This document shows, in pieces, positions 2,916 to 58,336 of a stretch of DNA of 64,000 bases. The notes beneath the pieces are model-generated. The model ran no database searches. It worked only from the letters and a program-made list of their open reading frames with translations, and was not told the origin of the DNA. How positions within the stretch are numbered: position 1 is the first letter of the stretch; every line of letters begins with the position of its first letter. Origin of the DNA: a bacterium (GTDB lineage Bacteria; CSSED10-310); NCBI GenBank assembly GCA_049652745.1, contig JBASEY010000042.1, positions 6,153 to 70,152 on the forward strand. The letters are read 5' to 3'. Both the position numbers and the translations under genes were made by a program.

Positions 2916-4303
2916 TATTCGCCTCCTATTATCACATTTTTAACCAGGACACTCGGACCACCGGTACCGCTTTTTTCCAGCATCTGCATGTCGAACAAGC
3001 CGGCTCTTGTCTTGCCGCATCCGCCGCCTTCATTCATTTTGAAGTCGTTCCCAACGCGAGCGATATTACCGAGAGTTTCGAAAACATTTCCGGATATATT
3101 GATGTCTTTGACCATTTTGCCGAGTTTGCCGTTTTTGATTTCGTAGCCGTATTGTGCGCCGAAGGTGAAAAGATCGCCCATGGTCTGGCCACCTTTTCCG
3201 CCGCATAAATACAAGCCGTTGTCGGCTTCGTTCAAAAGCTGCTCAAAAGGTGTTTCACCCTGTTCAATAAAGATGTTGGACATTCTGACCTGTGGCATGA
3301 ACCTATAGTCGACCGCACGACTGTTTCCCGTCAGCTCCCCGTCCAATTGTGCCGCAGAAAGTCTCGAATGCAGTCGCCCGGCCAGCAGACCGTCTTTGAC
3401 CAGGTAGGTTTTGGATGAACGGACTCCTTGTTCATCATAGCTATATGTGCCGCTTGCGCCCGGCCAACTGCCGTCATCGACGATATTCAAATGCGGTTCT
3501 CCCATTCGCCTGCCTATGACCAACATCTCTTGAAGGGACTTGTTATTGATAGTGTCGTCGGCTTCCGACAGGTGACCGAAGGCTTCATGGGTAAACACAC
3601 CTGACAGATCCTGGTCGGCGACGATCGTGTAAACTCCCGGTTTGACCGGCTCTGCTTTCAACAGGTCTACAGCAAGTTTTGCCCTGTGTTCCACATCTGC
3701 ATGCCTGTTCAGCAGCATCGCGTAATCGGCATCGAACCCCAAGGCGATACCCAGGCTGTCCGTGGCGCTTTCGTTTTTCGCGACGATTCGGAACGACATG
3801 AAACATTGAACGATATCTTGATCGATAGCGGTGCCTTCCGAGTTGACGAAGGTTTCATGTGTAAAGTTTTCATAATAGGTTCCGAATGTCGTGAACACGC
3901 CAGGTATATCCAGGATAAGTCGAAGGTAATCTCGTGCCAAAGCCACTTTGTCGTCGAAAGAGATTGTCCGCGGATCGAGTTTCATCACAGGAATGACGAC
4001 ATCTTCTACAACAGGGGCCGGCATAAGGCGGTTTGTCGAGTCAAAATCCGATAGGTGTAAAGCGCTGCGGGTCGCCAATTTGACTGCTTCCGCCAATTTT
4101 TCCGGCCGCGTAAACGCTGACGCTGCATAACCTCCATTTTTGAGAGCAGTGATACGTCCTCCTTTGATCACCGTGTTTGACACGCCGTTTATATCAAGTT
4201 TGTTGAACGTGATCGTCAGTTGGCGTGTGTCTTCATACTTGGCATCGATGTAATCGGCATCGGCGCCTTTGATCCCATTTTTTAAGACATGTTTCATTCT
4301 CAA
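2915..4303 (-). CDS. tldD: TldD-family zinc metalloprotease
   Basis: HEAFGHLSEADD (HExxxH) motif and a C-terminal GGGCGK motif characteristic of TldD. Confidence 0.85.
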   Translation of the reverse strand: MRMKHVLKNGIKGADADYIDAKYEDTRQLTITFNKLDINGVSNTVIKGGRITALKNGGYAASAFTRPEKLAEAVKLATRSALHLSDFDSTNRLMPAPVVEDVVIPVMKLDPRTISFDDKVALARDYLRLILDIPGVFTTFGTYYENFTHETFVNSEGTAIDQDIVQCFMSFRIVAKNESATDSLGIALGFDADYAMLLNRHADVEHRAKLAVDLLKAEPVKPGVYTIVADQDLSGVFTHEAFGHLSEADDTINNKSLQEMLVIGRRMGEPHLNIVDDGSWPGASGTYSYDEQGVRSSKTYLVKDGLLAGRLHSRLSAAQLDGELTGNSRAVDYRFMPQVRMSNIFIEQGETPFEQLLNEADNGLYLCGGKGGQTMGDLFTFGAQYGYEIKNGKLGKMVKDINISGNVFETLGNIARVGNDFKMNEGGGCGKTRAGLFDMQMLEKSGTGGPSVLVKNVIIGGE

Positions 4304-7203: not shown

Positions 7204-8229
7204 ATGTGCATTAAAAAGAACATGCCTTCTTGTTTGAAAGCGACTGCTTTGTTTCAATTAGTGATCAAAGTTGCCCTGTGCCCATTGATCATAAGTATCT
7301 TAACCGGTTGTGTTCACTTAGAAAACGGAGTTAACGCCACATGTGCAGGTTTGATAGACTTGTCCCAAGGTCTGGATGGATTTTTCGGCGACCCGAAAGA
7401 AGATGACGCTTATCATGAAACGCGTTGGAAAATAGGTGGCGGAGCTCGTGTGAACAAGGACAATGAGTATGAATTTGTCGGCAGAAACAATCTGAAAATA
7501 GCGCTTCCCGGTACCAAAGAATCGTGGGGAATTTTAATCGGCGGATCAACGGAAAAAGAACCTTTATCTGTTGATACCTATGGGGGCGCAAGTCAACCGG
7601 ATTTGATTTTATCCAGCCCGTCTTCCCCTGTTCAACCTGACAAATCTTCAACAGAATCGGAGTCTTTTTTGCGGCTCTATGTCAAGGAAAGACCGTTTTT
7701 GGATTGGGATTTCGATGTCGGTGCCAAGTATAACGAGGATTGGAAAATGTTTGCTCGGCTTCGAGCTAAACGTATCGGGACGATAGGTACAAATAGTTAT
7801 TATGTCGCTCAGGAAGTTTTTTGGAGAAACACCGGTGAGGAATTCGGGCTCAAAACGGTTTTTGAACTGGACCAGCCCATAGGGCCTTGTGCGGTTTTAC
7901 GCGAATTCATCAGTTTTTATCACCATCATAAAAGTGTTGGAGTGGATATCTATACGGGGCTGAAACTTCGCACATGGGCGGGAAGAAAAATGGGTGTCGG
8001 AATAGAACTGATCAATTTTCTGACAACTGATCCATGGGAATATCGATATACGGACTTTCTCTGCCGTATCAGGCGCACGATCGGCAGAGAATGGTTCGAG
8101 ATTGAACTCACACCGAAAATGCGGATGCGTAAGCTCAGCGATGAATGGAAACAGGAATTATCGGCAGAATTGGTGTTGGCTCTGATTTTTGATGCAGAAC
8201 ATGTGATCAGACAAAACAATCATAACTAA
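7204..8229 (+). CDS. lipoprotein, possibly an outer-membrane component of the ABC-2 system
   Basis: Lipobox ILTGC. Alternating hydrophobic pattern in the C-terminal half. Confidence 0.5.
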   Translation: MCIKKNMPSCLKATALFQLVIKVALCPLIISILTGCVHLENGVNATCAGLIDLSQGLDGFFGDPKEDDAYHETRWKIGGGARVNKDNEYEFVGRNNLKIALPGTKESWGILIGGSTEKEPLSVDTYGGASQPDLILSSPSSPVQPDKSSTESESFLRLYVKERPFLDWDFDVGAKYNEDWKMFARLRAKRIGTIGTNSYYVAQEVFWRNTGEEFGLKTVFELDQPIGPCAVLREFISFYHHHKSVGVDIYTGLKLRTWAGRKMGVGIELINFLTTDPWEYRYTDFLCRIRRTIGREWFEIELTPKMRMRKLSDEWKQELSAELVLALIFDAEHVIRQNNHN

Positions 8230-9998
8230 AACAGCTCAAAACACGCTTTTTCAGAAGCGACGCCTTGAACATTCTGTTTCAATGGAATGACATACCAGCA
8301 GTACTTTCCAACTGAAAGCGTTTCAGCAATTCCTTTGACGATGACAACTTGAGTGGAACCGTATTTGGGGACCGATAAATTTTGACCATCGGGGAATTCA
8401 ATAACATACAAGTAACCATCAGCTCCCGGAACCGCGCTCCATTCAAGGTCTGGAAATCTTCCCCACCAAGCTGTGCCGTCAGCCGGAGAAATCAGGCGAG
8501 GACCGTAATTCGGCAAAGGCTTTTGCGCCAAATTTAATTGGTAATCGCTTTCAAGCTTTATCCCTATCCCGGTAACAACGGCGGAAATAACAAGTGTGCA
8601 AAGCAGCATAACCAAACGTATACGGCCGGAGATTTTTTGAAAAAACATCGGCATGCACAAGCTTGAAAAAAACAGGCTTGTTCCCACCAAGCTCCAAATC
8701 GTCCCCGGCGTCGGATTCAGCAATGACGGAACAGCATATCCCAAAAATGCCGGAAGAAAATGATTCCACAATCGATTGATGCCGTCTGTATGGACGATAG
8801 CCATTTCAGGAATGGTCAACAGAACACCTACTATTTGTAACAGTGACACGCACCATAAAAATAGAGAAAGGAGTATGATGGGTGTTGATCGAGGTCTATT
8901 GATTTCCAATGCTAGGAAAAGCCCTAGAAAAGGTAGCAAGGGGATGAGGTATCTTGCTGGAGGGCAGTGTCCGCTGTGCCAATCGATCCACGATCCGGAA
9001 AGCGTCCAGAATAAAATGACGATTCCCGCGGCGAAATTTAAATGTCGTGACCGGTTCCAACGGAATAGCAGTCCCCCCAATGCCGGTATAAAAATCGGCG
9101 CAAACACTATCAATCCAGCTTCGCGGTCAAATAAAAGCCCCAGCATACCAGTAAAAGGCTTGCCAAACCCTCCTGCTTTGACCCGAAGCACATAAAACAA
9201 CTCGTTAAACAGCGAATATTGCAATCCTATAAATAAGATAGCGCTGATAAGAAGAGGTGATAAAACAAGTAAGAGCTGTTTAAAGGTATAGTTACGGTTG
9301 AAGAGAAATATCAGTAAAACCGCCAGTGTGAAAAATGAGAATTTGATATGCATCCAGGGTAGGAGAGACAAAAAGAAACTGCCTGCGATAAAACGGGAAA
9401 GGCGCTGATCGAGTATCATCCATCGGAAAGCCAGCGGCAAAAAAAGTGCTGCTATAATATCGGGAAAGACCTTCCCGCTGCTCATGATAAATGGTAGGTT
9501 GAAAGCTGTTATGATGGTTGCCAGGGCGGCTTTCCAGGGTAAAACACCAAAATGCAAAGCTAGATAATAGACCTGTATTGCGGCAAAACTTGAAAGTAGC
9601 GTCAAAAACAAGATCACACCGTAACGCCCGCCAAGAAAAAACGGCAGCATAAGCAATATAGGCAAACCGGGTTCATGAGCGCTGACACTTCGTCCCGAAT
9701 CGCTATAAATCAAATGTGGGGTCACCTTGGTCACACCGAAAGCTTTCAGCTCAGTTGCTGAATAGTTGTTTTGAATATCGAGGTCTCCATCGTTCAACAA
9801 GCTGACCGTAATGACATAGTAATGGATTTCATCGCCGTGAAGGTTGCCCGGCAGTGTCGACAGATTGTGAAAGGCCATCGATACAGCAAAAACAACCGTT
9901 ATTATCACGAATGGAACGAACCGCTTCATTATGCCAATCATATCCGTTCCTTTCTTTGAATGCATGTATTTTTTTCTTATGAAGGTTTTTTGAAGCAA
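8226..9998 (-). CDS. GT-C fold membrane glycosyltransferase (PMT/ArnT-like) with a C-terminal extracytoplasmic domain
   Basis: More than 10 TM helices. First loop carries a DE motif (HGDEIHYY), as in GT39/GT83 enzymes. C-terminal roughly 110-aa soluble beta-rich domain. Confidence 0.5.
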   Translation of the reverse strand: MLQKTFIRKKYMHSKKGTDMIGIMKRFVPFVIITVVFAVSMAFHNLSTLPGNLHGDEIHYYVITVSLLNDGDLDIQNNYSATELKAFGVTKVTPHLIYSDSGRSVSAHEPGLPILLMLPFFLGGRYGVILFLTLLSSFAAIQVYYLALHFGVLPWKAALATIITAFNLPFIMSSGKVFPDIIAALFLPLAFRWMILDQRLSRFIAGSFFLSLLPWMHIKFSFFTLAVLLIFLFNRNYTFKQLLLVLSPLLISAILFIGLQYSLFNELFYVLRVKAGGFGKPFTGMLGLLFDREAGLIVFAPIFIPALGGLLFRWNRSRHLNFAAGIVILFWTLSGSWIDWHSGHCPPARYLIPLLPFLGLFLALEINRPRSTPIILLSLFLWCVSLLQIVGVLLTIPEMAIVHTDGINRLWNHFLPAFLGYAVPSLLNPTPGTIWSLVGTSLFFSSLCMPMFFQKISGRIRLVMLLCTLVISAVVTGIGIKLESDYQLNLAQKPLPNYGPRLISPADGTAWWGRFPDLEWSAVPGADGYLYVIEFPDGQNLSVPKYGSTQVVIVKGIAETLSVGKYCWYVIPLKQNVQGVASEKACFELF

Positions 9999-22694: not shown

Positions 22695-24065
22695 TCACAC
22701 CGCATGTGACACGCTGGACAGGTGAAACCCATCTATTCGGACCCAGGGAAACAGTCCCGGCCAATATTCGCCGTAAGTCTTTATCGCCGGCGTCATCCCG
22801 GTGATCCTATTCAGGCTGTTTATCGGTGAATCGTTAAACCGAAAATTGTTGACAGGGTAACGAATTTCTCCATTTTCAATCCAGAAAACACCGTCTCGGG
22901 TGAGTCCGGTGAGTTCAAGGCGGTTCCAATCGATGGGGTTGACATACCAGAAGGATTCAATCAAAAGCCCTTTATTCACACCTGTGACAAGGTCTTCTAC
23001 AGAAAATGTTCCTCCAGGCATAAACAAATTTTTTGGATATGCGATCGGATCGATATTTTTTATACGAGCATAATAAGGCGAATGCTGGAAATTTTGAATG
23101 GCGCCTTCCTTGATCCATTCTATTGTTTTCATCGGCAGTCCCATACTGAAAAAATTTCCGGCATAAGAACCTCCGGAACCTCCGGCGTTGCCGAATTTCA
23201 ACGTCGGGAGCTCGGGATGATTGACGACGCTTTTTATCGAGATGGAATCTTTGAAACACTTATCGCCTAACCTGCTGTTGTTTGATGATTTTCCAAAAAA
23301 AGAATGACCCTTATCAGCTTCTCTGGCGTCCATGGCAAATAGAAGAAACATCAGGTATTCAGAAAGAGCTTTAGGTGACAGGATGACGGTGTAAGTACCA
23401 GGTTCTTGATAACGGGGCTCCGCTGATTGCTTGGCTATTCGAATAGATCGTTCCACAGTGTCCAGGTAGTGGAATCTGTTCCAGTCTCCTTCCCACAAGT
23501 GTGCTTGGCTGCTGCCGTCATGTCGCCGGGTTCGTGTGGACAGAGAGATGGAAATTTCTGTTGACGGCTGCTCTGCGAACAAACCTTTTGTATTTGCAAC
23601 GGCTTTGCTCTTCTCGGTTACATACAGGTTGCCATATATGTTGACATCTCCAGCTTCACCCAGATCACATATTGTTTTGACGATATCGGCTCGAGAATCG
23701 ATGTCGAGCTGTGCCGTACTTTCAAACCAAGCGTTAGTATTTTCATATTTCTGCGGGCTGACAGGTTCGAAAAACTCCGGGTTTATCGGGGCATTTTGGG
23801 CGAATAGAATCGCTTTATTGACCAGTTCATCCAAGTTGTCGTTTTGAAGCAAGTTGGTTTGGATGACGGATTCTTTCCCTTCAACTGCTACAGCCAGGGT
23901 TAGCGAGGTGTTTTGATGGGTTTTATGCTGAGTGATTCGGTTGGCGGCAAATCGAATAGCGCCTACGTTGTCTTCCATTAGAACGGCGGCGGCATGATCG
24001 GCGCCTTTTTTCCGAGCTTTTTCCAGGATAGATTCCAATAGAGCCGTGGTATTCAATATAGTCAT
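22695..24065 (-). CDS. PmbA/TldE-family metalloprotease subunit (second pair)
   Basis: TldD/PmbA-family architecture without HExxxH. Its start overlaps the upstream TldD stop (ATGA). I trimmed the start to the Met at 24065. Confidence 0.7.
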   Translation of the reverse strand: MTILNTTALLESILEKARKKGADHAAAVLMEDNVGAIRFAANRITQHKTHQNTSLTLAVAVEGKESVIQTNLLQNDNLDELVNKAILFAQNAPINPEFFEPVSPQKYENTNAWFESTAQLDIDSRADIVKTICDLGEAGDVNIYGNLYVTEKSKAVANTKGLFAEQPSTEISISLSTRTRRHDGSSQAHLWEGDWNRFHYLDTVERSIRIAKQSAEPRYQEPGTYTVILSPKALSEYLMFLLFAMDAREADKGHSFFGKSSNNSRLGDKCFKDSISIKSVVNHPELPTLKFGNAGGSGGSYAGNFFSMGLPMKTIEWIKEGAIQNFQHSPYYARIKNIDPIAYPKNLFMPGGTFSVEDLVTGVNKGLLIESFWYVNPIDWNRLELTGLTRDGVFWIENGEIRYPVNNFRFNDSPINSLNRITGMTPAIKTYGEYWPGLFPWVRIDGFHLSSVSHAV

Positions 24066-25516
24066 TTTGTTTTCCTCCGTATCGAGATGTTTTTCAGGCG
24101 TAATGGTGCGCTTCCATGAGTCAGAGTGGCGTTTTGTACGGGTTGACCTTTTGCACAGCCCAAGAGGCCATAAGGCCGCCATTCTTCAGCACGGCAGACG
24201 CTGTCGAGAGAGCCCCAGAATGTTGGGTTGGCGCCATCGTATACGACGTTCCATAACGGCTCTTTAACTTTACCGTTTTGAATGCGCCTGCAATATTCGC
24301 CGCCGAACTGAAAATTCAGTCGCTGGTGATCAATACTGAAGGCGGCCATTCCATCGACAAGAATTCCGTTTTCAGTGTCTTCTATCAATTGAGCCAGCGT
24401 GGGTGAACCAGCCGGTCCAGGATCGATACCGATATTTGCCATTCTAAGTAAAGGGAAAGAGCTCCAATGATCTGCTCTGGCGCAGCCATGACTTTTTTTC
24501 TGTCCGATCAACGGTGCGGTGTCACGGGTAGTTGAATAATCCTTCAAAACACCATTTTCGACAAGCTTCCATTTATCAGCCGGTACACCTTCATCGTCAA
24601 AAGCACAGGTAGCCAGGCCGTTGGGAAGTGTTCTGTCTGCGGTGACATTGAACAGTTCCGAGCCGTAACGGTAGTGGTTCAGTTTGTCGGGGGTGGCAAA
24701 GGATGTGCCGGCATAATCCGCTTCCCATCCCAGCACTCTATCGAGCTCGGTAGCGTGTCCGATGGATTCATGAATGACAAGGCGGGTGTGATTGGGCATT
24801 AAAATCAAATCTGCTTTGTCTCTGTTCCAGGGTTTAGCATCCAGCAGTTCGACGGCTTCCCGGGCAACACGTGGTGCTGCAGCCAACAGCTCTTCAGACC
24901 GAATGCCCTCATATCCGACGCCTTGCTGCAGACTTTGATAACTTCTTGTTTCAGATCGATCGTGACTCACTGCTGTAGCTCTGTAATCAGCATCACTAGT
25001 TACCATTACTTGGTCGATACGGCTGCCTAAAGTGTTGACATACTTTTTATCGGTTCGCTGAAAAAGCATGAGCGAACTTGTTTCACTGACACGGTTTACG
25101 GCAGCCATAGATGCATTTATGGCAAGTAAAAGGTCAAATTTTTCTTGTAAGGGTATGGTGAAAGGATCGATTTGAAAGGCTGATTGCCATTGTGATTCAT
25201 AGGCTTTTAACGGTGTCGGTACAATGGAAACACGGGAAATTCGTGCGCCGGCTTCGGCTACCTGAACAGCTTTTTGTACCAGTTTAGCCATGTCTTTTTC
25301 TGTCGTCACTATGCCGGCGGCAAATCCCCAGGCGCCTTTGTGAAACACCCTGACATTCATGCCTTCACTGGCCTCATCAACCATAACATCGATCACTTGG
25401 TCACGGGCACGAAGAATTTGTTCTCGATAACTCCCCCATTGACTCTCCAAAAAAACAAGCTTTTTATCCATTGCCTCGTTTAAGGCGGCACAGAGTAATT
25501 TATCCACATCGATCAT
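24062..25516 (-). CDS. TldD-family zinc metalloprotease (second pair)
   Basis: HESIGHATELD HExxxH motif. TldD-like length and C-terminal Gly-rich region. Confidence 0.8.
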   Translation of the reverse strand: MIDVDKLLCAALNEAMDKKLVFLESQWGSYREQILRARDQVIDVMVDEASEGMNVRVFHKGAWGFAAGIVTTEKDMAKLVQKAVQVAEAGARISRVSIVPTPLKAYESQWQSAFQIDPFTIPLQEKFDLLLAINASMAAVNRVSETSSLMLFQRTDKKYVNTLGSRIDQVMVTSDADYRATAVSHDRSETRSYQSLQQGVGYEGIRSEELLAAAPRVAREAVELLDAKPWNRDKADLILMPNHTRLVIHESIGHATELDRVLGWEADYAGTSFATPDKLNHYRYGSELFNVTADRTLPNGLATCAFDDEGVPADKWKLVENGVLKDYSTTRDTAPLIGQKKSHGCARADHWSSFPLLRMANIGIDPGPAGSPTLAQLIEDTENGILVDGMAAFSIDHQRLNFQFGGEYCRRIQNGKVKEPLWNVVYDGANPTFWGSLDSVCRAEEWRPYGLLGCAKGQPVQNATLTHGSAPLRLKNISIRRKTK

Positions 25517-39394: not shown

Positions 39395-39598
39395 CTTCCC
39401 CCTCGCGAATGAATTCTTGGGTTTTGGAGAACATGTTTCAACTCGTTGGGCACATGTTAAAACACGGGGTCTTATAAATAATTGAAACAAGGCAAGAATT
39501 CAAACGTGTGTTTGGAGTCGGCAATCTGGACATTTACATTGCTTTCACGTTACACTCACTATTCCGGTTGGATCGTTAAACGTAAAGGAGATAAATCT

Positions 39599-41005
39599 AT
39601 GGCGATCAACAGAGGTGAAAAAATAAAAATTTTATTGCAATCAGAAACAAGTTTGGATCATGTGGTCATTACCGGCTGGATTCGGCAGAAGCGTGAAAGC
39701 AAATCATTGTTGTTTTTACTGATCAATGACGGCTCGTGCCTATCGGGAATACAGGTTGTAGCTGAATCCCATCTTGAGAATTTTGAATCGGTCAGGAAAA
39801 CATCGATTGGATCGAGTGTTCGTATCTCGGGTCGTCTTGTCGATTCACCAGGCAAAGAGCAGAAATATGAAATTCATGCCGACCAAATCGAGATTTTCGG
39901 TGAGTGCGACGATGACTACCCTCTTCAGAAAAAACGGCATAGTTACGAGTTTTTACGCTCGATCGCTCATTTGAGACCTAGAACCAACAGTTTTGGGGCG
40001 GTTTTTCGTGTTCGGAATGCCGCGGCATATGCCATTCATGAATTTTTTCAGGAAAAAGGCTTTTTTTACATTCACACGCCGATAATCAGCAGCTCGGATT
40101 GTGAAGGCGCCGGTGAGATGTTTCAGGTCACAACTCTCCCTTTGCACAATGTGCCAATGAGGAAAACCGATCAAGGTGGGCTGGAAGTGGATTTCTCTCA
40201 GGATTTTTTCAAAATTCCGACAGGTTTGACGGTCAGCGGGCAGCTTGAAGGAGAGTTGTTTGCAATGTCCTTGTCGGAAATTTACACCTTCGGCCCGACA
40301 TTTCGAGCAGAAAACTCCAATACACCTCGACATGCGGCGGAATTCTGGATGATCGAGCCGGAAATGGCGTTTTATGATTTGGACGATAATATCGCTCTAG
40401 CAGAGTTGTTTATCAAAGAAGTCACTCGGCGCGTGCGCCGACGATGTGAAGACGATCTGGCATTTTTCAATGAGCGGATCGATCCAACATTGTTTGAACG
40501 ATTGGACGCGATAGAAAAATTCACGTTTGAGATACTGACTTATACCGAGGCGGTTGATTTGCTTAAAAAGTCAAACAAAACGTTTGATTTTCCCGTTTCT
40601 TGGGGTATGGATTTACAAACGGAGCACGAACGGTATTTGACGGAGGAATTGATTAAAAAGCCGACTTTTGTCCGGGATTATCCGTTGGATATCAAAGCGT
40701 TTTACATGCGTCGCAGTGATGACGGCAGAACAGTCGCCGCTATGGATCTTCTGGTGCCTCGTATCGGTGAGATAATCGGCGGCAGTCAGCGTGAAGAACG
40801 GTTGGATGTTTTAAAGGAGCTGATAGAACTCAAAGGCCTGGATATGAAAAACTATTGGTGGTATCTGGATACTCGGCGTTTTGGCTCGGCTCCTCATGCC
40901 GGTTTCGGTCTTGGATTTGAACGGCTGCTTCAATACGTGACCGGAATGGCCAACATACGTGATGTCATTCCTTTTCCGAGGACTCCGGGGAATGCGGAGT
41001 TTTAG
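39599..41005 (+). CDS. asnS: asparaginyl-tRNA synthetase
   Basis: Class II aaRS motifs (FRAENSNTPRHAAEFWMIEPEM, GSAPHAGFGLGFERL). RBS AAAGGAG 8 nt upstream of the ATG at 39599. Confidence 0.9.
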   Translation: MAINRGEKIKILLQSETSLDHVVITGWIRQKRESKSLLFLLINDGSCLSGIQVVAESHLENFESVRKTSIGSSVRISGRLVDSPGKEQKYEIHADQIEIFGECDDDYPLQKKRHSYEFLRSIAHLRPRTNSFGAVFRVRNAAAYAIHEFFQEKGFFYIHTPIISSSDCEGAGEMFQVTTLPLHNVPMRKTDQGGLEVDFSQDFFKIPTGLTVSGQLEGELFAMSLSEIYTFGPTFRAENSNTPRHAAEFWMIEPEMAFYDLDDNIALAELFIKEVTRRVRRRCEDDLAFFNERIDPTLFERLDAIEKFTFEILTYTEAVDLLKKSNKTFDFPVSWGMDLQTEHERYLTEELIKKPTFVRDYPLDIKAFYMRRSDDGRTVAAMDLLVPRIGEIIGGSQREERLDVLKELIELKGLDMKNYWWYLDTRRFGSAPHAGFGLGFERLLQYVTGMANIRDVIPFPRTPGNAEF

Positions 41006-44463: not shown

Positions 44464-45735
44464 GTGCGAACACGGATTGGGAGGTGTTTTATAGTGAATC
44501 ATTTCGGCAAAATAAAATGGTTTCTGGTGTTGATGTTTTTATTTCCTCGTGCGGTGTATTCAAATGCTGTGATTTACCCTGTTTTTGCGGATGGATGGCT
44601 TGTAGCCGGCAATAAAACCGTTGGGACGGCGGTTCGCCTTATGCGTGTCGGGATGTGGTCGGAGGCTCAGGAGGAACTGCAAAAGTCGGTATGGAATCGA
44701 CCGCGAAATCATGCCGCTCAATTCAATTTAGGCGTGTGCTATGAACGTGTCGGGCAGCTTGAAAACGCCAAACGTTTTTACCAGCGTGCCGTCGATCTTC
44801 GTCCGGAGGCTCTTTATTGTGAAGGACTGGCTCGTTTGGACGGCGTCGCAGGCAGGGGCGCTGAATTTGTCAAGTTTTTAATACCCTGTGATAGTTCGTG
44901 TAACCATGGATATGTATTTGCCAGAGCCGGCATGTGGGAATATGCCTCCCGGCTATTTGAAAATGCTTATCATTATCGATCGAATGCCACCACGGCTTTG
45001 AACCTTGCCGTGGCTTATGAAGTGTTGGGCAATCGTCGGGACGCCGATCGAATGATTCGGAATGCATCGGCATTGGGTAGTAATCAGCAATATTTGTCCT
45101 TCGCGCACTATCTGTCATCATCGTCGGATTTACCGTTGGAGATGGCGATATGTTTGCCGGATATTACGACCGTTACCGATATGCCGGTATTGAAAACAGC
45201 ATTTATCATCGGTGACAACGCAGTATTGCGTTTGAGTCCGTCGCACGACTCCCCTGTCTTGGCGCAGTTGCGCCAAAATACCCGGGTCGATGTTCTGTCG
45301 CTCTCATCGACGTGGACACGGGTTCGAACTCACCAAAACAAAGAAGGATTTTTACCGACACTGTTTCTCTCTTCAGAATATGTTACAGAAAAAACGGCAG
45401 TTCATGGTTATTCAACTGCGCATTCACAGGCTGCCGTAATAGAAGAGCATGAAGAATATGATGAGTATGAAGATATTTATGAACAGATTTTTGAAAATCC
45501 CGAGCCTTCGATTACCGTGACGATTCCTGAGGATGGAAACCGTGTAGCCATACGTGAAAAACCATCGTTGATGGCTGAAATAACGGGATATTTGGAGCCG
45601 GGGGATAGTCTGGAAGTCAGGGAAAGCGATGTTTCATCCTGGTATGAAATTGTTGATGATTCGCGGCCTCAAGGGTTTATCTTAAAAATGCATACCAAGG
45701 CGCTCGAAAAGCGCCTTCTTGGCGATGAGAACTGA
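44464..45735 (+). CDS. secreted TPR protein with two C-terminal bacterial SH3-like domains
   Basis: Signal peptide. TPR-like repeats. Two SH3b-like segments near the C-terminus. Confidence 0.5.
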   Translation: MRTRIGRCFIVNHFGKIKWFLVLMFLFPRAVYSNAVIYPVFADGWLVAGNKTVGTAVRLMRVGMWSEAQEELQKSVWNRPRNHAAQFNLGVCYERVGQLENAKRFYQRAVDLRPEALYCEGLARLDGVAGRGAEFVKFLIPCDSSCNHGYVFARAGMWEYASRLFENAYHYRSNATTALNLAVAYEVLGNRRDADRMIRNASALGSNQQYLSFAHYLSSSSDLPLEMAICLPDITTVTDMPVLKTAFIIGDNAVLRLSPSHDSPVLAQLRQNTRVDVLSLSSTWTRVRTHQNKEGFLPTLFLSSEYVTEKTAVHGYSTAHSQAAVIEEHEEYDEYEDIYEQIFENPEPSITVTIPEDGNRVAIREKPSLMAEITGYLEPGDSLEVRESDVSSWYEIVDDSRPQGFILKMHTKALEKRLLGDEN

Positions 45736-45740
45736 GCGGC

Positions 45741-45755
45741 GCGCTCTGCGAGCGC
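45741..45755 (+). terminator. stem-loop GCGCTC-TGC-GAGCGC directly after a stop codon
   Basis: 7-bp GC-rich stem with a 3-nt loop. The same 15-mer recurs at 49079-49093. Confidence 0.45.
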
Positions 45756-46060
45756 GGTTCCTGGTTTCTGGTACTGGGTTTCTGGTTAGGTTTTTCAGTA
45801 GATTCATTTTTGGTGAGTCACCTATATGGTGGTAGATAACTATAGTTTCTTAAGTCGAACCACTTGGTGATTGGTTATTGGACATTGGATATTGGATATT
45901 GAATCTTCCATCCCTTGCCCCTTACCTCTTACCCCTGCTTCTTGCTTATAAAGCTAACCATTTGGATATTGGACATTCGGTCATACTTGATACTTTTGTG
46001 ACCATGATGTATAATAACTACAAAGTTTGCATTCTTTGAGATAGCGACGGATTTTATCGC
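45756..46060 (+). repeat. intergenic repeat element, copy A, carrying the promoter and RBS of the downstream gene
   Basis: Shares the GGTTCCTGGTTTCTG 5' motif, ATTGGAN heptad tandems (45877-45904), polypyrimidine tract CCCTTGCCCCTTACCTCTTACCCCTGCT and 3' motif GGATTTTATCG.TG.CCTTTGAAAGAAGGAG with copies B and C. Contains TTGATA-17nt-TATAAT (45987-46015). Confidence 0.6.
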
Positions 46061-46066
46061 TGACCT

Positions 46067-49000
46067 TTGAAAGAAGGAGCCAACATTATGAAACATTATT
46101 GCTGGTGGATAAAAACGTTAGTTGTCATCTGTATTCTGTTCGGATGCCAACTCGCCTCTTCAATGGCTGCGGTCACCATCGATGTGGAGATGCGTTTGAA
46201 TGACGGCGGCTTTGTATCGTATGACCATTTTCAAGCCGATTTGTATCTGAATAACTTGGGTCGAATGGTGTCGGATGCGAGTATATTCGGAATACTCGAG
46301 GTAATGGGTGAGTTTTTCTTTTGGCCGTCATTTTCGAGTGAAGTTGATTTTGAGTTGATGGATATAAAACCTGGCGAAACGGTGGTGACTATTCTAGCGT
46401 TTGATTTCGGTGACATCGAGGATTTCATCCCGTTCGGGCCGATGGTTTTCTGGGGAGCCTGGTTTTTGGATATGGAAACGTGGAACTACGATTCTCAGGA
46501 GTTTTGGTTGGGTCCAGAGCATAAATGGACGCCGACCCCTACGCCTACACCGACATCTACGCCTGCATCCACAATAATAGTCTCAGAAATGGTTTTCATT
46601 CCTCCAGGAACTTACATGCGTGGTTCACCGGACGATGAACCCTGTCGTTTCGCAAATGAAATCCGCAGGCAGATCTCTCTGACTCGTGGGTTTTATATGA
46701 TGCAAACGGAGGTGACCCGTCGGATGTGGGCGGATCTGAAATCCGTTCAGCCGGATTTGCCGGATGATCCGAGCGCAACGGCATTCAGCCCGACGATGGA
46801 TCATCCTGTACAGAATGTTACATGGTTTGATGCAGTATTGTTTGCAAATCTCATGTCACTTCAGGAAGGGTACAGGCAGTGCTACTATCTGGACCAGGTT
46901 TTCATGACGCCGTTGGATGCGACGAATTACACTTCGAATTCAGTCTATTGTGATTTCAATGCAAATGGATATCGTCTGCCTACTGATGCGGAATGGGAAT
47001 ACGCGTGCCGAGCAGGATCGGTCGGGCCGTTTTCATGCAGTGACCCCGATTTTACCGATTTGACTTGTCAATCTTGTGTACCGGGAACTCATCCGGAATT
47101 GGAGCGGCATTGCGTGTATTGTGCCAATAATTGGAATGGACCTGAAGTTGTAGGCAGTAAGTATCCGAATATGTGGGGCTTATATGATATGCACGGGAAC
47201 GTGTTTGAATGGTGTTGGGATTGGTATACCGTGAATCCATCGAGACCATTTGTGGATCCGACGGGACCGGAAACCGGCATACATAGAGTGGAGCGCGGTG
47301 GTTCATGGAGCGTCTACGCACAAAACTGCCGCTCGGCGATTCGGAGCAAGAACACGCCTTACAACCGAGACAACAATCGGGGTTTTCGTCTTGTCAGAAG
47401 CGCTACCGGGTTTATTTATATTCCTGGAGGAACATACACGCAAGGTTCACCAGACGATGAACCCTGTCGTCAGAGTGATGAAGACCAATATCACGTCACA
47501 CTGACCTGCGGATTTGACATGATGGTTACGGAGGCGACTCGGCAGATGTGGGCGGATCTAAAGCATTTTCTGAGCAGCTTTCCGGAAGACCCGAGCGATA
47601 CGAGTATCAGCCCGTCAATGATTCATCCTGTGCAGAATGTCACATGGAACGAAGCCGTATTATTTGCGAATATCTTGTCGATAAAGCGTAGGTTTGTTCC
47701 GTGCTACTATGCTGATGCGGAATTTACGGATGCCATAAATCTGAATAATTACACCTCAGATACAATTTTTTGTAATTTCGACGCTAACGGATATCGTCTG
47801 CCTACCGAAGCGGAATGGGAATATGCGTGTCGGGCAGGGACGGTCTGGCCGTTTACATGCTATGAGCCGAAGTATAACACCCGTAATTGTGAAACCTGTG
47901 AAGAAGAAACACATCGAACACTGGAACAGTACTGCGTCTATTGTGCAGCCGGCCAGACAGGAGCGAGTGTTGTCGGCAGCAAAAATGCCAATCAATGGGG
48001 GTTTTACGACATGCATGGCAATGTGAATGAATGGTGTTGGGATAGATATGGTTCGTATCCATCGGGCTCTGTAACGGATCCGACGGGACCGGAAACAGGA
48101 TCAAATCGAGTGGCACGGGGTGGCAGTTGGAACTGTAGCGCACGGAGCTGTCGGTCGGCGAATCGCAACAGCATTGCTCCGGACAGCCGTAGCCACCTTC
48201 TAGGTTTTCGCCTTGTGAGGAAGCCTATGGAGCTTACTCATATTTCCTCAGGAGATTTCAATCAAGGTCCATCATGGTATTTAGAACCTTGTCGTGACTC
48301 CTCTCTTGAAATCGGGCGTCACGTTACGCTGACCAGAGATTTCGAAATAATGCTTACAGAGGTGACCCGGCAGATGTGGGCTGATTTGAAGGCTGTTTGC
48401 CCGATGTTGCCGAACGATCCGAGCGACGAGACGGTGAGTCCGACGATGGATCATCCCGTGCAGAATGTCACATGGAATGAAGCTGTATTATTTGCGAATC
48501 TGATGTCGGCAAAGGACGGCTACAGGCAGTGCTATTACAAAGATGCTTATTTCACGTTGGTGCTAAGTGTGACGAATTACAATGAGCGCTTTTTCTTTTG
48601 CGATTTTGAAGCGGATGGGTACCGCCTTCCCACTGAAGCGGAATGGGAATATGTGTGTAGGGCTGGGACGACCGGAGCGTTTTCATGCGATGAGCCGTAT
48701 TATGATAGCTATAATTGTGAATCCTGTGATCCGGGAACGCTCCTGGATCTGGAACAGTATTGCGTCTTTTGTGCAAATTCTTCGAATGGTGCTGAGCTTG
48801 TCGGCAGTAAGCTTCCTAATCCATGGGAATTGTATGACATGCATGGCAACGTGAGTGAGTGGTGTTGGGACTGCTTTGAAAAATATCCATCGAAGCCTGT
48901 TGTAGATCCGACAGGAGGACCGCAACCCTGCCCTCTCGATTCACGCATAGAGCGAGGCGGCAGTTGGGATCACCCCGCGAAGTTCTGTCGGACGGCAAGT

Positions 49001-49072
49001 CGATCTTTTAGTAACTCCCGCACCCGTAAAAATTATCGGGGTTTTCGTCTTGTCAAAACGGTATTCCGCTAA
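46067..49072 (+). CDS. lipoprotein with three tandem FGE-sulfatase (SUMF1/GldK-like) domains
   Basis: Lipobox LFGC. PTPTPTPTSTP linker. Three repeats of about 277 aa, each with YRLPTEAEWEY.CRAG, YDMHGNV.EWCWD and RGGSW motifs. DNA-level period about 831 bp (domains begin near 46568, 47411, 48242). Confidence 0.8.
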   Translation: MKEGANIMKHYCWWIKTLVVICILFGCQLASSMAAVTIDVEMRLNDGGFVSYDHFQADLYLNNLGRMVSDASIFGILEVMGEFFFWPSFSSEVDFELMDIKPGETVVTILAFDFGDIEDFIPFGPMVFWGAWFLDMETWNYDSQEFWLGPEHKWTPTPTPTPTSTPASTIIVSEMVFIPPGTYMRGSPDDEPCRFANEIRRQISLTRGFYMMQTEVTRRMWADLKSVQPDLPDDPSATAFSPTMDHPVQNVTWFDAVLFANLMSLQEGYRQCYYLDQVFMTPLDATNYTSNSVYCDFNANGYRLPTDAEWEYACRAGSVGPFSCSDPDFTDLTCQSCVPGTHPELERHCVYCANNWNGPEVVGSKYPNMWGLYDMHGNVFEWCWDWYTVNPSRPFVDPTGPETGIHRVERGGSWSVYAQNCRSAIRSKNTPYNRDNNRGFRLVRSATGFIYIPGGTYTQGSPDDEPCRQSDEDQYHVTLTCGFDMMVTEATRQMWADLKHFLSSFPEDPSDTSISPSMIHPVQNVTWNEAVLFANILSIKRRFVPCYYADAEFTDAINLNNYTSDTIFCNFDANGYRLPTEAEWEYACRAGTVWPFTCYEPKYNTRNCETCEEETHRTLEQYCVYCAAGQTGASVVGSKNANQWGFYDMHGNVNEWCWDRYGSYPSGSVTDPTGPETGSNRVARGGSWNCSARSCRSANRNSIAPDSRSHLLGFRLVRKPMELTHISSGDFNQGPSWYLEPCRDSSLEIGRHVTLTRDFEIMLTEVTRQMWADLKAVCPMLPNDPSDETVSPTMDHPVQNVTWNEAVLFANLMSAKDGYRQCYYKDAYFTLVLSVTNYNERFFFCDFEADGYRLPTEAEWEYVCRAGTTGAFSCDEPYYDSYNCESCDPGTLLDLEQYCVFCANSSNGAELVGSKLPNPWELYDMHGNVSEWCWDCFEKYPSKPVVDPTGGPQPCPLDSRIERGGSWDHPAKFCRTASRSFSNSRTRKNYRGFRLVKTVFR

Positions 49073-49078
49073 TCAGGT

Positions 49079-49093
49079 GCGCTCTGCGAGCGC
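49079..49093. terminator. bidirectional stem-loop GCGCTCTGCGAGCGC between convergent genes
   Basis: Identical 15-mer hairpin to 45741-45755. Followed by GTGCTGAG x2 and a GGTTTTTCA motif shared with copy A. Confidence 0.45.
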
Positions 49094-49130
49094 TTCAGTG
49101 CTGAGTGCTGAGTTATAGGTTTTTCACTCG

Positions 49131-55386: not shown

Positions 55387-55453
55387 TCAAAGCAATAAAT
55401 CTATTAGGCGGTCAGCATTGAGCGATTTAGCCTGCTGTGCTATAAAACGCGGC

Positions 55454-56824
55454 ATGAAGAGGTTGGCTCCTGTTAAATATTTGTTCTTGATTTTGATAAT
55501 CGGTTTTTTCTTGTTGAATTCGGGATGTGATCGTGATGATTTGTCGAATTATCAACCGACAAAACAATCCGAAAAGCCGCTGAATGTATTGATGATTTGC
55601 CTGGACACGCTTCGCGCAGACCGGTTGAGCTGTTACGGATATGACCTGCCGACGTCACCGTTTATGGATGAACTGTCTCGACATTCTATTCTCCTGACAG
55701 ATGTGCTGGTTCAGAATCCTTCTACAATTTTGTCACACCGTGCTATCTTCACCGGGAATTATGTGTTCCGACAGGGGTCTGGGCCGGCACCCGAATCACA
55801 AACGCTTGCCGGTATACTGACAAAGGCGGGCTATGCCACAGCGGCATTCACGGATGGTGGTTTGATGAGCCTGCGTTTCGGCAACGCCCCTGGTTTCGAA
55901 CTCTATAACGATGCCGCAGGGGGCTCTAAACGCGTTTTCGGCAGAGGTGTCGACTGGATCGATTCCAATCCCGGAAAGCCGTTTTTTCTGTTTCTCCATA
56001 CTTATGAAGTTCATTACCCCTATACTCCTCCCCAACCATTTAACGATATGTTCCTGCCGACGGGTGAGCCACCTTATCACCTGGGAAAAGATTTCGGACA
56101 GGAGTATTGGAATAATCTGGATTTGAAAAGACAGGATTTTATTTGGATTTCCCGACGCTATGATGGTGGCATCAGATATGTCGATACGATTATGATGGAT
56201 TTGTGGAAAGCGTTGGTAACGCGAAACCTGTTGAACAACACAATTGTCATTATCCATTCCGATCACGGGGAAAGCATGGGGGAAAGACTCTTTGTCGGCC
56301 ATCGAGACCCCTATGAGCCTCAGATTCATATCCCGCTTCTGTTTCATGTTCCCGGCTGGAAACATGCCGTGATCGATGGCGCTGTCGAGAGCGTCGATAT
56401 CGCTCCCACCTTGCTCGATCTGCTCTCGATCAAATCACAAAGGTCTTTCTGCGGGCAGTCGCTGGTCTCAAATTTACACAACAGTGAACATTTAAGTGCG
56501 TTTCGACCCAGATTGAGCGAAACCTGGATGCGGGCATTTCGTCTTGGCCCTGAATGGAAATTGATGCTTTGTGACAAAGATGAAAATGATCGTTTATACC
56601 GTCTGACGGATGATCCTGAGGAAATGACAAGTCTGGACAAGGAATATCCGGAAATTGTCGAAGAGCTTAGACAAGGATTGGTACAGTTTATGGGGGTGGA
56701 GAGAACTCGCATTCACAAATTACCGGAAGCGCCCAAGGTGCCGGTTGTTTTGATGCCACTGGACGGTGAAAACGAAGAAAATGTCGAGATGCAACAATTG
56801 AGAGAATTAGGGTATATTCACTAA
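55454..56824 (+). CDS. sulfatase-like hydrolase/transferase of the alkaline-phosphatase superfamily (Thr-nucleophile variant, not the CxPxR type)
   Basis: Lipoprotein signal (LLNSGC). MICLDTLRADRLSCYGY motif in place of C-x-P-x-R. Metal-binding HSDHGE motif. Confidence 0.7.
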   Translation: MKRLAPVKYLFLILIIGFFLLNSGCDRDDLSNYQPTKQSEKPLNVLMICLDTLRADRLSCYGYDLPTSPFMDELSRHSILLTDVLVQNPSTILSHRAIFTGNYVFRQGSGPAPESQTLAGILTKAGYATAAFTDGGLMSLRFGNAPGFELYNDAAGGSKRVFGRGVDWIDSNPGKPFFLFLHTYEVHYPYTPPQPFNDMFLPTGEPPYHLGKDFGQEYWNNLDLKRQDFIWISRRYDGGIRYVDTIMMDLWKALVTRNLLNNTIVIIHSDHGESMGERLFVGHRDPYEPQIHIPLLFHVPGWKHAVIDGAVESVDIAPTLLDLLSIKSQRSFCGQSLVSNLHNSEHLSAFRPRLSETWMRAFRLGPEWKLMLCDKDENDRLYRLTDDPEEMTSLDKEYPEIVEELRQGLVQFMGVERTRIHKLPEAPKVPVVLMPLDGENEENVEMQQLRELGYIH

Positions 56825-56833
56825 AAGGAGGTT

Positions 56834-58336
56834 ATGGTGGTGGAAAATAATCCACAACGTAGTGAATCGGCTGAAAATGAGTATATGCAAATCCGATTGA
56901 AAAAAATCGAATTGATGAAAGATGAAGGAATTCAGGTTTACCCGGATCGGTTTCCGGACGCACTCACCTGCGGCGAAGCGGCGAAACTGCCGGCAGGACA
57001 TGAAGGTGTGCGATGCGCCGGCCGGATCATATCGATTCGGAAAATGGGCAAATTGATGTTTCTACATATCCAGGACATCACGGGAAAAATTCAAATCGCC
57101 CTTCGCAAAGGCGGTATCAGCGATAAGACCTTCGAGCTGGCAAAAGAAGTGTTGGATATCGGCGATTTTATCGGCGTGGAGGGGCACATAATTGTAACGC
57201 GAACCGGCGAACTGACAATCGATGTCACAGAGTACATGTTTCTATCTAAATCGCTCCATCCGCTGCCGGAAAAATGGCATGGGTTGACGGATACAGAAAT
57301 GATTTACCGGCGCCGCTACTTGGATTTGGTCATGAGTCAACATGCCAGGACCAAATTTCTGGCCAAAAGTCGATTGATCCAGGTCATGAGAGAAGTTTTT
57401 CTCAGAAACGACTTCATCGAGGTCGAGACTCCCGTTCTGCAATGCAAGCCGTCGGGGGCCATGGCGCGGCCTTTCCGCACCTATCATGAAGCGCTGAATA
57501 TGGATGTCTATCTGCGTATAGCGCCGGAAACCTACCTGAAACGCCTGTTGGTTGGAGGATACAATCGTGTTTTTGAGTTCGCACGGTGCTTTCGCAATGA
57601 AGGAATCAGCGCGGATCATCTTCAGGATTTCACCATGCTGGAATATTATGTGGCATACTGGAATTATGAAGACAATATGCGTTTTACCGAAAAATTGATT
57701 CAGGAAGCTATGGAAGCCGTCACGGGATCGACAAGGGTTGTTGTTGCAGGGCAAGAAATTGATTTTGGCGGCAATTGGGAACGAGTGACGTTCAGGGATG
57801 TGATCGCCCGGGATGCCGGAATCGATATCGACGAATATGCCGACGCTGATAGTCTACTGAAAGTAATAGTCGAACGGAACATTCTTCCGGGAGTTCCTTT
57901 GGAAGAGCTGAAAAAATTGGGACGAGGAAACCTGTTGGACCAGTTGTTCAAGAAAGTGTCGCGTCCGCGGATGATACAACCGCAATTTCTTGTCGGGCAT
58001 CCGATCGATGTGTCGCCCCTGGCCCGTTCAAATGATAAAAATCCATCAACAGTCGATCGTTTTCAACTGATCGCCGGCGGCGTCGAATTGGTCAATGCCT
58101 ACTCGGAGCTGGCCGATCCGGTCGATCAACGGCAACGATTCGAAGCTCAAGCACGGTTGCGGGCAGCCGGTGATGAAGAAGCTCTGGCTTATGACGAAGA
58201 TTATATTCTGGCATTGGAATATGCCATGCCGCCGGCTTCGGGCTGGGGAATGGGTATAGACAGATTTATGAAATTTCTTTTCAATGAAGAGAATATTAAA
58301 AACTGTGTGCTGTTTCCATTGATGCGGCCTGAGTGA
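56834..58336 (+). CDS. lysS: lysyl-tRNA synthetase, class II
   Basis: N-terminal OB-fold anticodon-binding domain. Class II motifs (FRNEG, GGVELVNAYSEL, GMGIDR). RBS AAAGGAGG. Confidence 0.9.
   Translation: MVVENNPQRSESAENEYMQIRLKKIELMKDEGIQVYPDRFPDALTCGEAAKLPAGHEGVRCAGRIISIRKMGKLMFLHIQDITGKIQIALRKGGISDKTFELAKEVLDIGDFIGVEGHIIVTRTGELTIDVTEYMFLSKSLHPLPEKWHGLTDTEMIYRRRYLDLVMSQHARTKFLAKSRLIQVMREVFLRNDFIEVETPVLQCKPSGAMARPFRTYHEALNMDVYLRIAPETYLKRLLVGGYNRVFEFARCFRNEGISADHLQDFTMLEYYVAYWNYEDNMRFTEKLIQEAMEAVTGSTRVVVAGQEIDFGGNWERVTFRDVIARDAGIDIDEYADADSLLKVIVERNILPGVPLEELKKLGRGNLLDQLFKKVSRPRMIQPQFLVGHPIDVSPLARSNDKNPSTVDRFQLIAGGVELVNAYSELADPVDQRQRFEAQARLRAAGDEEALAYDEDYILALEYAMPPASGWGMGIDRFMKFLFNEENIKNCVLFPLMRPE

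Follow-up and report, generated by a model that had tools for sequence, protein, structure and literature searches.

Results

Gene and domain organization

We analysed a 64-kb stretch of contig JBASEY010000042.1 (assembly GCA_049652745.1), assigned to the bacterial lineage CSSED10-310; this whole stretch is called the window below. The gene of interest is the open reading frame (ORF) 46067/46088..49072 on the + strand, which an earlier note on this DNA had described as encoding a lipoprotein with three tandem domains of the formylglycine-generating enzyme (FGE) type. The existence of this gene was confirmed. Its likely start is the ATG at 46088, which gives a product of 994 aa, and an identical 994-aa protein (P0001) is encoded on contig JBASCJ010000038.1 of the metagenome-assembled genome (MAG) GCA_049651585.1, where its NCBI product name is 'SUMF1/EgtB/PvdO family nonheme iron enzyme'. 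We argue here that the protein is most likely a multivalent, non-catalytic lipoprotein that would bind ligands at the cell envelope in the manner of an adhesin or receptor. The features of the gene are as follows.

45987..46015, + strand: putative sigma-70-like promoter TTGATA-17-TATAAT (11/12 consensus match)
46073..46079, + strand: ribosome-binding site GAAGGAG, 8 nt before ATG 46088, read from the sequence
46088..46147, + strand: lipoprotein signal peptide MKHYCWWIKTLVVICILFG followed by C, with lipobox LFGC and Cys20, read from the sequence
46166..46534, + strand: N-domain, a family-defining β-sandwich of ~123 aa; no match in a Pfam scan
46535..46582, + strand: Pro/Thr-rich linker (TPTPTPTPTSTPAS...), read from the sequence
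46583..47398, + strand: D1, FGE-type C-type-lectin (CLec) domain, aa 166-437 (PF03781, domain alignment)
47399..48223, + strand: D2, FGE-type CLec domain, aa 438-712 (PF03781; AlphaFold2 model, pLDDT 95.7)
48224..49072, + strand: D3, FGE-type CLec domain, aa 713-994, plus the stop codon (PF03781)
47294..47398, + strand: C-terminal variable loop of D1 (RGGSW...GFRLV), from alignments; counterpart of the variable region of TvpA and of the active-site segment of FGE
48116..48223, + strand: C-terminal variable loop of D2, from alignments
48953..49060, + strand: C-terminal variable loop of D3, from alignments

The three-domain architecture was borne out. Pfam returned three matches to PF03781 (E 5e-128) and no other domain, and hence no DinB-like domain. 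The motif YRLPT[DE]AEWEY recurs at aa 295, 569 and 845, HGNVxEWC at aa 369, 643 and 919, and RGGSW at aa 403, 677 and 956, giving a repeat period of 274-279 aa (822-837 bp), in agreement with the ~277 aa originally proposed. The protein begins with a signal peptide that ends in a lipobox with the invariant Cys, and the equivalent positions in the ortholog and paralogs described below read CILFGC, CILIGC and SILLGC; from this conserved lipobox, lipidation of the protein is predicted. The promoter region is also kept in the ortholog locus, L002, ahead of each of the two family genes, and we regard the gene, as part of the explanation that we hold to be probable overall, as an ordinary, stable gene on the chromosome of a CSSED10-310-like bacterium that is transcribed separately.

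The N-domain, which precedes a linker that is longer in the paralogs, gave an all-β AlphaFold2 model (pLDDT 69) with which Foldseek recovered weak Ig-like matches only. It is kept in 18 of the best 120 homologs of the protein, and a profile search of a representative library found 1046 relatives at E<1e-3. In distant relatives, it stands as the extreme C-terminal domain of secreted subtilases, of C25 and M6 peptidases and of β-helix and FG-GAP proteins. The N-domain may serve in anchoring or sorting, as a module that has so far escaped recognition.

Each of the three domains also carries a cysteine cluster of the form C-x9-C-x2-C-x11-C-x2-C (47036-47122 in D1). The cluster is only partly kept in the wider family, and an alignment of 29 domains shows no variation at the first Cys of the CxxC; disulfides or a metal site are possible roles for the cluster.

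Absence of the FGE catalytic residues

The domains have the PF03781 match and the fold of FGE (the D2 model superposes on human FGE with a TM score of 0.69), but the pair of copper-binding, catalytic cysteines (C336/C341 of the human enzyme, within the motif LCHxSYC) is found in none of them. In the alignment to 6MUJ and among the domains, the two positions are occupied by V/A in D1, C/A in D2 and H/A in D3. The single Cys of D2, Cys683, aligns with the first FGE Cys and is replaced by Ser in a strain variant that is 94% identical. This conservation check, which the earlier note had itself proposed, speaks against its suggestion of a sulfatase maturase, and we take D1-D3 to be non-catalytic on the strength of these alignments.

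All NCBIfam equivalog models, including that of SenA, scored below their cut-offs. The top match was GldK (TIGR03525, E 1.9e-59), with 202 bits summed over four stretches against a cut-off of 350; lower scores were obtained for TIGR02171 (197 against 544), PvdO (178 against 500), EgtB (TIGR03440; 113 against 360) and ovoA_Nterm (39 against 400). The earlier note had also called for a search for CxPxR sulfatases and genes of the type IX secretion system (T9SS). Within the 64-kb window neither was found: the C/S-x-P/A-x-R signature is absent from all ORFs of at least 200 aa, and Pfam scanning of the window ORFs gave no porL/M/N-like genes.

Resemblance to TvpA and divergence of the loops

The best sequence match in the PDB is TvpA, the variable protein 1 of Treponema denticola (2Y3C, E 1.5e-28), ahead of the true FGEs (~1e-16) and PorK (~1e-14); for D3 taken separately, the best match is again TvpA (E 5.7e-23). 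The AlphaFold2 model of D2 likewise puts TvpA first, with TM scores of 0.79 for TvpA, 0.74 for PvdO, 0.69 for human FGE and 0.49 for PorK. TvpA is reported to have no FGE activity and to act as a binding lipoprotein (PMC5758913). Its variable region, the C-terminal 45 residues (285-329), is equivalent to residues 322-369 of human FGE and spatially matches the FGE active-site segment (PMC5006420).

The corresponding segment of our protein, with the pattern RGGSW-x3-A-x2-CRSA-x-R-...-GFRLV, is the most diverged part of the domains, both among D1-D3 and in comparison with the ortholog (43% identity in the loops, 68% elsewhere). Each domain would appear to present a different C-terminal loop at the place where TvpA and Mtd form their ligand-binding surface. 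Because the catalytic residues have been lost, TvpA is the closest relative of known structure and the loops are the most diverged segments, we favour a binding function.

Age of the triplication

The expansion to three domains had been considered recent, a view that the data contradict. The mutual identity of D1-D3 is 54-59% at the protein level and 68-71% at the DNA level (self-blastn), and Tandem Repeats Finder did not report the domain repeat. A syntenic ortholog (P0003; 984 aa, 65% identity) likewise has three domains. The order radical SAM, TPR-SH3, FGE, MscL, permease, sulfatase-like and lysyl-tRNA synthetase genes is shared by the window and the ortholog locus, and the two are collinear across the whole FGE gene at 74% DNA identity. 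In a neighbour-joining tree, D1 pairs with D1 of the ortholog (63% identity, 79% bootstrap) and D2 with its D2 (69% identity, 100% bootstrap), while D3, the fastest-evolving of the three, shows no resolved pairing. Because the same three domains occur in the syntenic ortholog and D1 and D2 are paired one-to-one, the triplication must be older than the divergence of the two species. We envisage that tandem duplication would have produced the three domains long before the separation from the nearest sampled species.

An assembly artefact, which had been named as the condition that would undo the proposal, was rejected: the copies are too diverged to have been collapsed or expanded, and the same architecture recurs in independent assemblies, namely those of the 94%-identical strain variant and of the ortholog.

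Family members and domain counts

A triple-domain form is not unusual, contrary to what had been supposed. Among the best 120 of 6813 homologs, a sample in which the three-domain query favours multi-domain proteins, ten have one FGE domain, 29 have two, 29 have three, 42 have four, eight have five and two have six. Fusions with kinase, caspase or other domains are common among these homologs, and proteins with three FGE/CLec domains in tandem have been described before (PMC5758913, PMC10907252).

A profile built from an 8-sequence alignment recovered the combination of the N-domain with one to four FGE domains from five GTDB genomes. Each of these has several paralogs, and one bears the name CSSED10-310. 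The MAG of the window itself contains two further four-domain paralogs in tandem (L007 203-8981), whose domains cluster by position in the tree, as would be expected if a two-domain unit had been duplicated. In a related MAG, a stretch of 18 kb holds six genes of the family (L010 3-17986), of which five are consecutive. The family thus expands locally, and the number of FGE domains (one to four or more) varies among the paralogs of this lineage-restricted family.

A four-domain relative, P0008 (L006 10001-13789), has near-identical repeats and is a case of recent expansion. The differences between its repeats concentrate in the final ~130 nt of each repeat, which encode the lectin loop, and the first ~30 nt also vary; no reverse transcriptase (RT) gene was found within 10 kb of it.

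Stem-loops beside the gene

Two stem-loops accompany the gene.

49079..49093, no strand assigned: GC-rich stem-loop GCGCTC-TGC-GAGCGC, 6 nt after the FGE stop codon; exact in the window and after the ortholog gene (L002 12961)
45741..45755, no strand assigned: second copy of the stem-loop, 5 nt beyond the stop codon of the TPR-SH3 gene upstream; in the alignment with L002, the paralog indel has its junction here

The earlier note had seen in these and related motifs the two borders of a cassette. The 15-mer GCGCTCTGCGAGCGC does occur exactly on both sides, at 45741 and 49079, and beyond chance: 0.09 occurrences are expected with up to two mismatches, and the observed count was reached in 0/100 shuffles. 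The stem pattern GCGCTC-N3-7-GAGCGC has an expectation of 0.00 in the window. This part of the claim stands. The motif TAGGTTTTTCA, exact at 45787 and 49116, is at chance level when one mismatch is allowed (four found against 1.5 expected, a count that 7/100 shuffles reach).

Comparison with the ortholog locus showed what the upstream copy is. In L002, this 15-mer stands after the three-domain gene and again after an additional 444-aa paralog (signal, N-domain and one FGE domain), and a stem with the loop GGA follows the TPR-SH3 gene, so that stem-loops lie 3' of three consecutive genes. Counting the window and L002, there are five instances directly after stop codons, with the loop TGC in four and GGA in one. 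Window 45073-45756 aligns with L002 7500-8166, and window 45741-48915 with L002 9634-12807; the window is thus L002 minus 8167-9633, a 1.5-kb segment with a promoter and the 444-aa paralog. On its 3' side, the upstream hairpin of the window has a flank (GGTTCC, GGTTTCT repeats and TAGGTTTTTC) that matches the flank of the paralog absent here. Because the junction lies inside the hairpin, and this copy ends the neighbouring unit, the upstream hairpin does not delimit the FGE gene. The arrangement suggests that the 1.5-kb indel (window 45736-46087 against L002 8148-10000) arose by deletion or duplication between the short hairpin repeats.

Heptamer tandem repeats lie beside the hairpins: GGTTTCT x4.6 (45756-45787, an array also kept in the ortholog locus), ATTGGAT x4.6 (45870-45901) and AGTGCTG x2.4 (49097-49113).

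After the two other paralogs in the window's MAG the hairpin is missing, as it is after the family genes of the other loci examined, and the stem pattern is confined to this locus among 22. A 21-mer comprising the hairpin and its flank gave four unrelated high-GC coding matches in metagenome contigs, which is the level of chance; we therefore rejected the possibility that the hairpin is a widespread element. The stem-loop at 49079..49093 is followed on its 3' side by a weaker second hairpin and a T-run, and the hairpin folds with ~ -9.5 kcal/mol. Both copies are exact in surroundings of ~74% identity (0.74^15, or ~0.01 per copy), which suggests constraint; this conservation is the sole argument for a function. 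The simplest interpretation is that the hairpin is probably a terminator or a stabiliser of the transcript's 3' end.

Neighbouring genes

Around the FGE gene, the window encodes a TPR-SH3 protein, an ABC-2 transporter, a Bro-N protein and MscL; the remaining genes are housekeeping and envelope genes. The lysyl-tRNA synthetase of the window is 73% identical to a CSSED10-310 protein and at most 58% identical to proteins of other phyla. One neighbour had been singled out as a sulfatase-like gene.

55418..56824: sulfatase-family (PF00884) gene, syntenic in the ortholog locus

The earlier reading of this gene as a variant with Thr as nucleophile, which would have no need of FGE, held up. In the alignment to 4UPL, PSTILSH stands opposite PICGSSR, with Thr at the position of the nucleophile Cys and His at that of the motif Arg (C-x-x-x-R). 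Rather than being a sulfatase, the protein probably acts as a phospho- or other transferase or hydrolase within the alkaline-phosphatase superfamily.

Between the FGE gene and the MscL gene, the segment 49131-52443 carries an ABC-2 permease and an ABC ATPase gene on the - strand and the Bro-N gene on the + strand. The ortholog locus lacks the ABC pair and Bro-N; there, MscL is directly next, with a ParE toxin gene beyond. The segment resembles an insertion, with Bro-N as a hint of a phage or mobile origin. Two paralogs of class-II lysyl-tRNA synthetase lie 16 kb apart (39482-41005 and 56834-58336) and occupy the same positions in the ortholog locus, and the window has two separate pairs of TldD/PmbA metallopeptidase genes (1602-4303 and 22695-25516).

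Search for a diversity-generating retroelement

FGE-type CLec proteins are the largest class of targets of diversity-generating retroelements (DGRs), and the known targets include one with three tandem FGE domains as well as remote ones more than 100 kb away (PMC5758913, PMC10907252). TvpA is itself diversified by a Treponema DGR, and we therefore looked for the components of such an element. Among the 46 window ORFs scanned with Pfam together with the FGE protein, there was no RVT_1 or Avd domain, and no YxDD motif occurs in window ORFs of at least 200 aa. The called genes of the loci around the close homologs P0003, P0004 and P0008 include no RT. A search for a template repeat (TR), by a degenerate pattern allowing up to 12 substitutions per 108 nt and by blastn of the gene against the window, found no compatible sequence in the window, and none was found in L007, a second contig of the window's MAG. 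Across the 325 kb of family loci scanned, there was no A-biased repeat pair with a family gene and no RT-like ORF; the sole flag of that scan was a marginal 58-nt pair in L013, outside its FGE gene.

A test of codon usage covered 16 hypervariable loop columns in 40 family domains, which are related and non-independent, so that its statistics are inflated. At these columns, 66% of the four-fold codons end in C or T, against 35-41% elsewhere, in all eight codon families; Ser is encoded as AGY in 64% of cases, against 35%; and K, E, Q, M and W are depleted (11% against 18%). We regard this NNY bias as a lead towards descent from DGR-evolved modules, not as a finding. Against the 94%-identical strain, the loops have changed at the same rate as the rest of the protein (5/72 and 51/922 residues, respectively).

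Discussion

What, then, is the function of this protein? We considered first the reading that its database name implies, that of a true member of the SUMF1/EgtB/PvdO group, a sulfatase maturase or other oxidase in three catalytic copies. The strong PF03781 match, the NCBI name and the presence of a sulfatase-family gene 6 kb downstream would all agree with it; we nevertheless judge it highly improbable, given that both copper-binding positions are substituted, that the single Cys of D2 differs between strains, and that there is no DinB-like domain, with the EgtB, OvoA, SenA and PvdO models far under their cut-offs. In the sulfatase-like protein encoded nearby, the nucleophile position is taken by Thr, no substrate signature occurs in the ORFs scanned, and an exported lipoprotein would be ill-suited to maturing cytoplasmic or Sec-unfolded sulfatases. 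The idea of a mobile or recombination cassette, with the two 15-mers as its ends, has in its favour that identical 15-mers do flank the gene, and that a hairpin-bounded unit of promoter and 444-aa paralog in L002 is gone from the window, with the junction inside a hairpin. The three-domain gene, however, has its own promoter and stands in conserved synteny in two species; it is not accompanied by an integrase or transposase, and no non-syntenic occurrence with a recombinase or specific end sites was found. The hairpin is missing after the other family genes of the window's MAG and of the other loci examined, its 21-mer finds chance matches in metagenomes, and since the window is the ortholog locus minus one segment, a simple deletion or duplication between repeats would suffice, which makes the cassette still less probable than the enzyme. 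The least credible proposal is a PorK/GldK- or GldJ-like component of the type IX secretion or gliding apparatus. Among the NCBIfam models, GldK gives the best match, and PorK is also a lipoprotein with an FGE fold (match to PDB 9MZU), but the GldK score does not reach its cut-off, PorK is matched poorly in fold, and porL/M/N-like genes are lacking from the window. T9SS belongs to the Bacteroidota and their relatives of the Fibrobacterota-Chlorobiota-Bacteroidota (FCB) group and is not known from the CSSED10-310 lineage. The host lineage has been described as a rare, anaerobic, Gram-negative sister of the Acidobacteriota (PMC8248873).

The DGR deserves more attention. In one form, the protein is, or descends from, a DGR target whose three loops are variable regions (VRs) rewritten from a TR by a remote or lost RT. 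The gene has the FGE-type CLec fold and a C-terminal variable loop, TvpA is its best match by sequence and by fold, the end of the β5 strand at GFRLV and the GC hairpin 3' of the last loop resemble the layout that follows a DGR VR (PMC5006420), and the bias towards C/T-ending codons resembles decayed AAY-derived codons. Against this, the codon test was built on non-independent domains; no RT, Avd or YxDD was found in the window ORFs scanned, no TR in the window or L007, and neither an A-biased pair with a family gene nor an RT-like ORF in the family loci. Hypervariation of the loops among close relatives is likewise not seen: the loops are no more changed than the rest between strains, and one and the same protein sequence of the ortholog occurs on 8 contigs, of which four, from different samples, were read. 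Because the loops of D1-D3 differ at non-adenine positions, they cannot share one template, and the same hairpin also lies 3' of the TPR-SH3 gene, which is not a lectin. We therefore consider it unlikely that the protein is or descends from such a target in this sense, and active diversification of the loops is also unlikely. A related possibility is that the array is a relic of DGR targets with fossil VR loops or, less likely, a remote and rarely rewritten target. The decayed AAY-to-NNY footprint across the family, the conserved β5 strand and the GC hairpin 3' of the last loop point in this direction, and we put it forward tentatively, as less probable than a binding lipoprotein that is simply encoded by a stable gene.

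Several observations weigh against the binding lipoprotein as we describe it. The function is based on homology to TvpA and Mtd and on the loss of catalytic residues, the NCBI name points to a nonheme iron enzyme, and the protein may have some other catalytic activity. The cysteine cluster of D1-D3 is absent from TvpA. The lipoproteins of this phylum could end at the inner membrane, at the outer membrane or on the surface. As for the 3' end of the gene, the hairpin regions fold no better than shuffles (z ~0), and no canonical U-tract follows the hairpin immediately, so that a terminator role is weakly supported. We nevertheless regard the ligand-binding lipoprotein as the most likely explanation.

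Little here would surprise a specialist: the protein belongs to the already known non-catalytic FGE-type lectin lipoproteins, to which it adds a lineage-specific N-domain and, possibly, a fossil signature of a DGR. The value lies in part in the correction of a likely mis-annotation, because D1-D3 lack the catalytic cysteines and resemble a binding module of the DGR type, so that neither 'nonheme iron enzyme' nor sulfatase maturase or T9SS component is a fitting name. We have also delineated a small paralogous family, found among the GTDB reference genomes in five MAGs only, which combines a β-sandwich with one to four lectin-like domains. This should be of modest use for the envelope biology of a rare uncultured phylum and for the annotation of thousands of metagenomic proteins with multiple FGE domains. 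If the relic interpretation is true, this lineage-specific family of one- to four-domain lipoproteins would have been built by duplicating DGR-evolved modules after the loss of the retroelement. And if the decayed codon footprint is real, it would show that binding modules evolved by a retroelement can persist and multiply once the retroelement is gone.

Comparison with known systems

With the FGEs proper (human SUMF1 and the enzymes of Streptomyces and Thermomonospora), our protein shares PF03781, the fold (TM ~0.69) and the scaffold motifs YRLPTEAEWEY, HGNVxEW and RGGSW. In contrast to them, it is an exported lipoprotein in which both catalytic cysteines of each domain are replaced, and no CxPxR substrate is encoded nearby. 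PorK/GldK and GldJ are, like it, lipoproteins with a non-catalytic FGE fold; our protein differs from PorK/GldK in lacking the large inserts of PorK, in having no porLMN context in the window and in coming from a different phylum.

Another parallel is offered by the multi-CLec/FGE sensors of conflict systems and DGR loci, which also carry tandem arrays of FGE-type CLec domains and are presumed to sense ligands. Examples include a vWA domain joined to three tandem CLec domains, and fusions of a kinase or an NTPase with FGE (PMC10907252, PMC5758913). Unlike these sensors, our protein has no signalling or effector domain and no MoxR, vWA or STAND neighbours. Membership of a defence system was considered and rejected, as PADLOC gave no match and the one match in PHROGs, to a 'kinase' family, comes through the FGE domain.

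The nearest known relative remains TvpA. Both are lipoproteins without FGE activity or its residues, they are 32% identical in the fold match, and in both the variable loop lies at the C-terminal end of the domain and is followed by a conserved β5 strand. They differ in that no cognate TR or RT was found for our protein in the loci searched and that it shows no hypervariation at the strain level. They differ also in architecture: where TvpA has a single domain, our protein has three in tandem, to which are added an N-terminal β-sandwich domain and an insert with the cysteine cluster.

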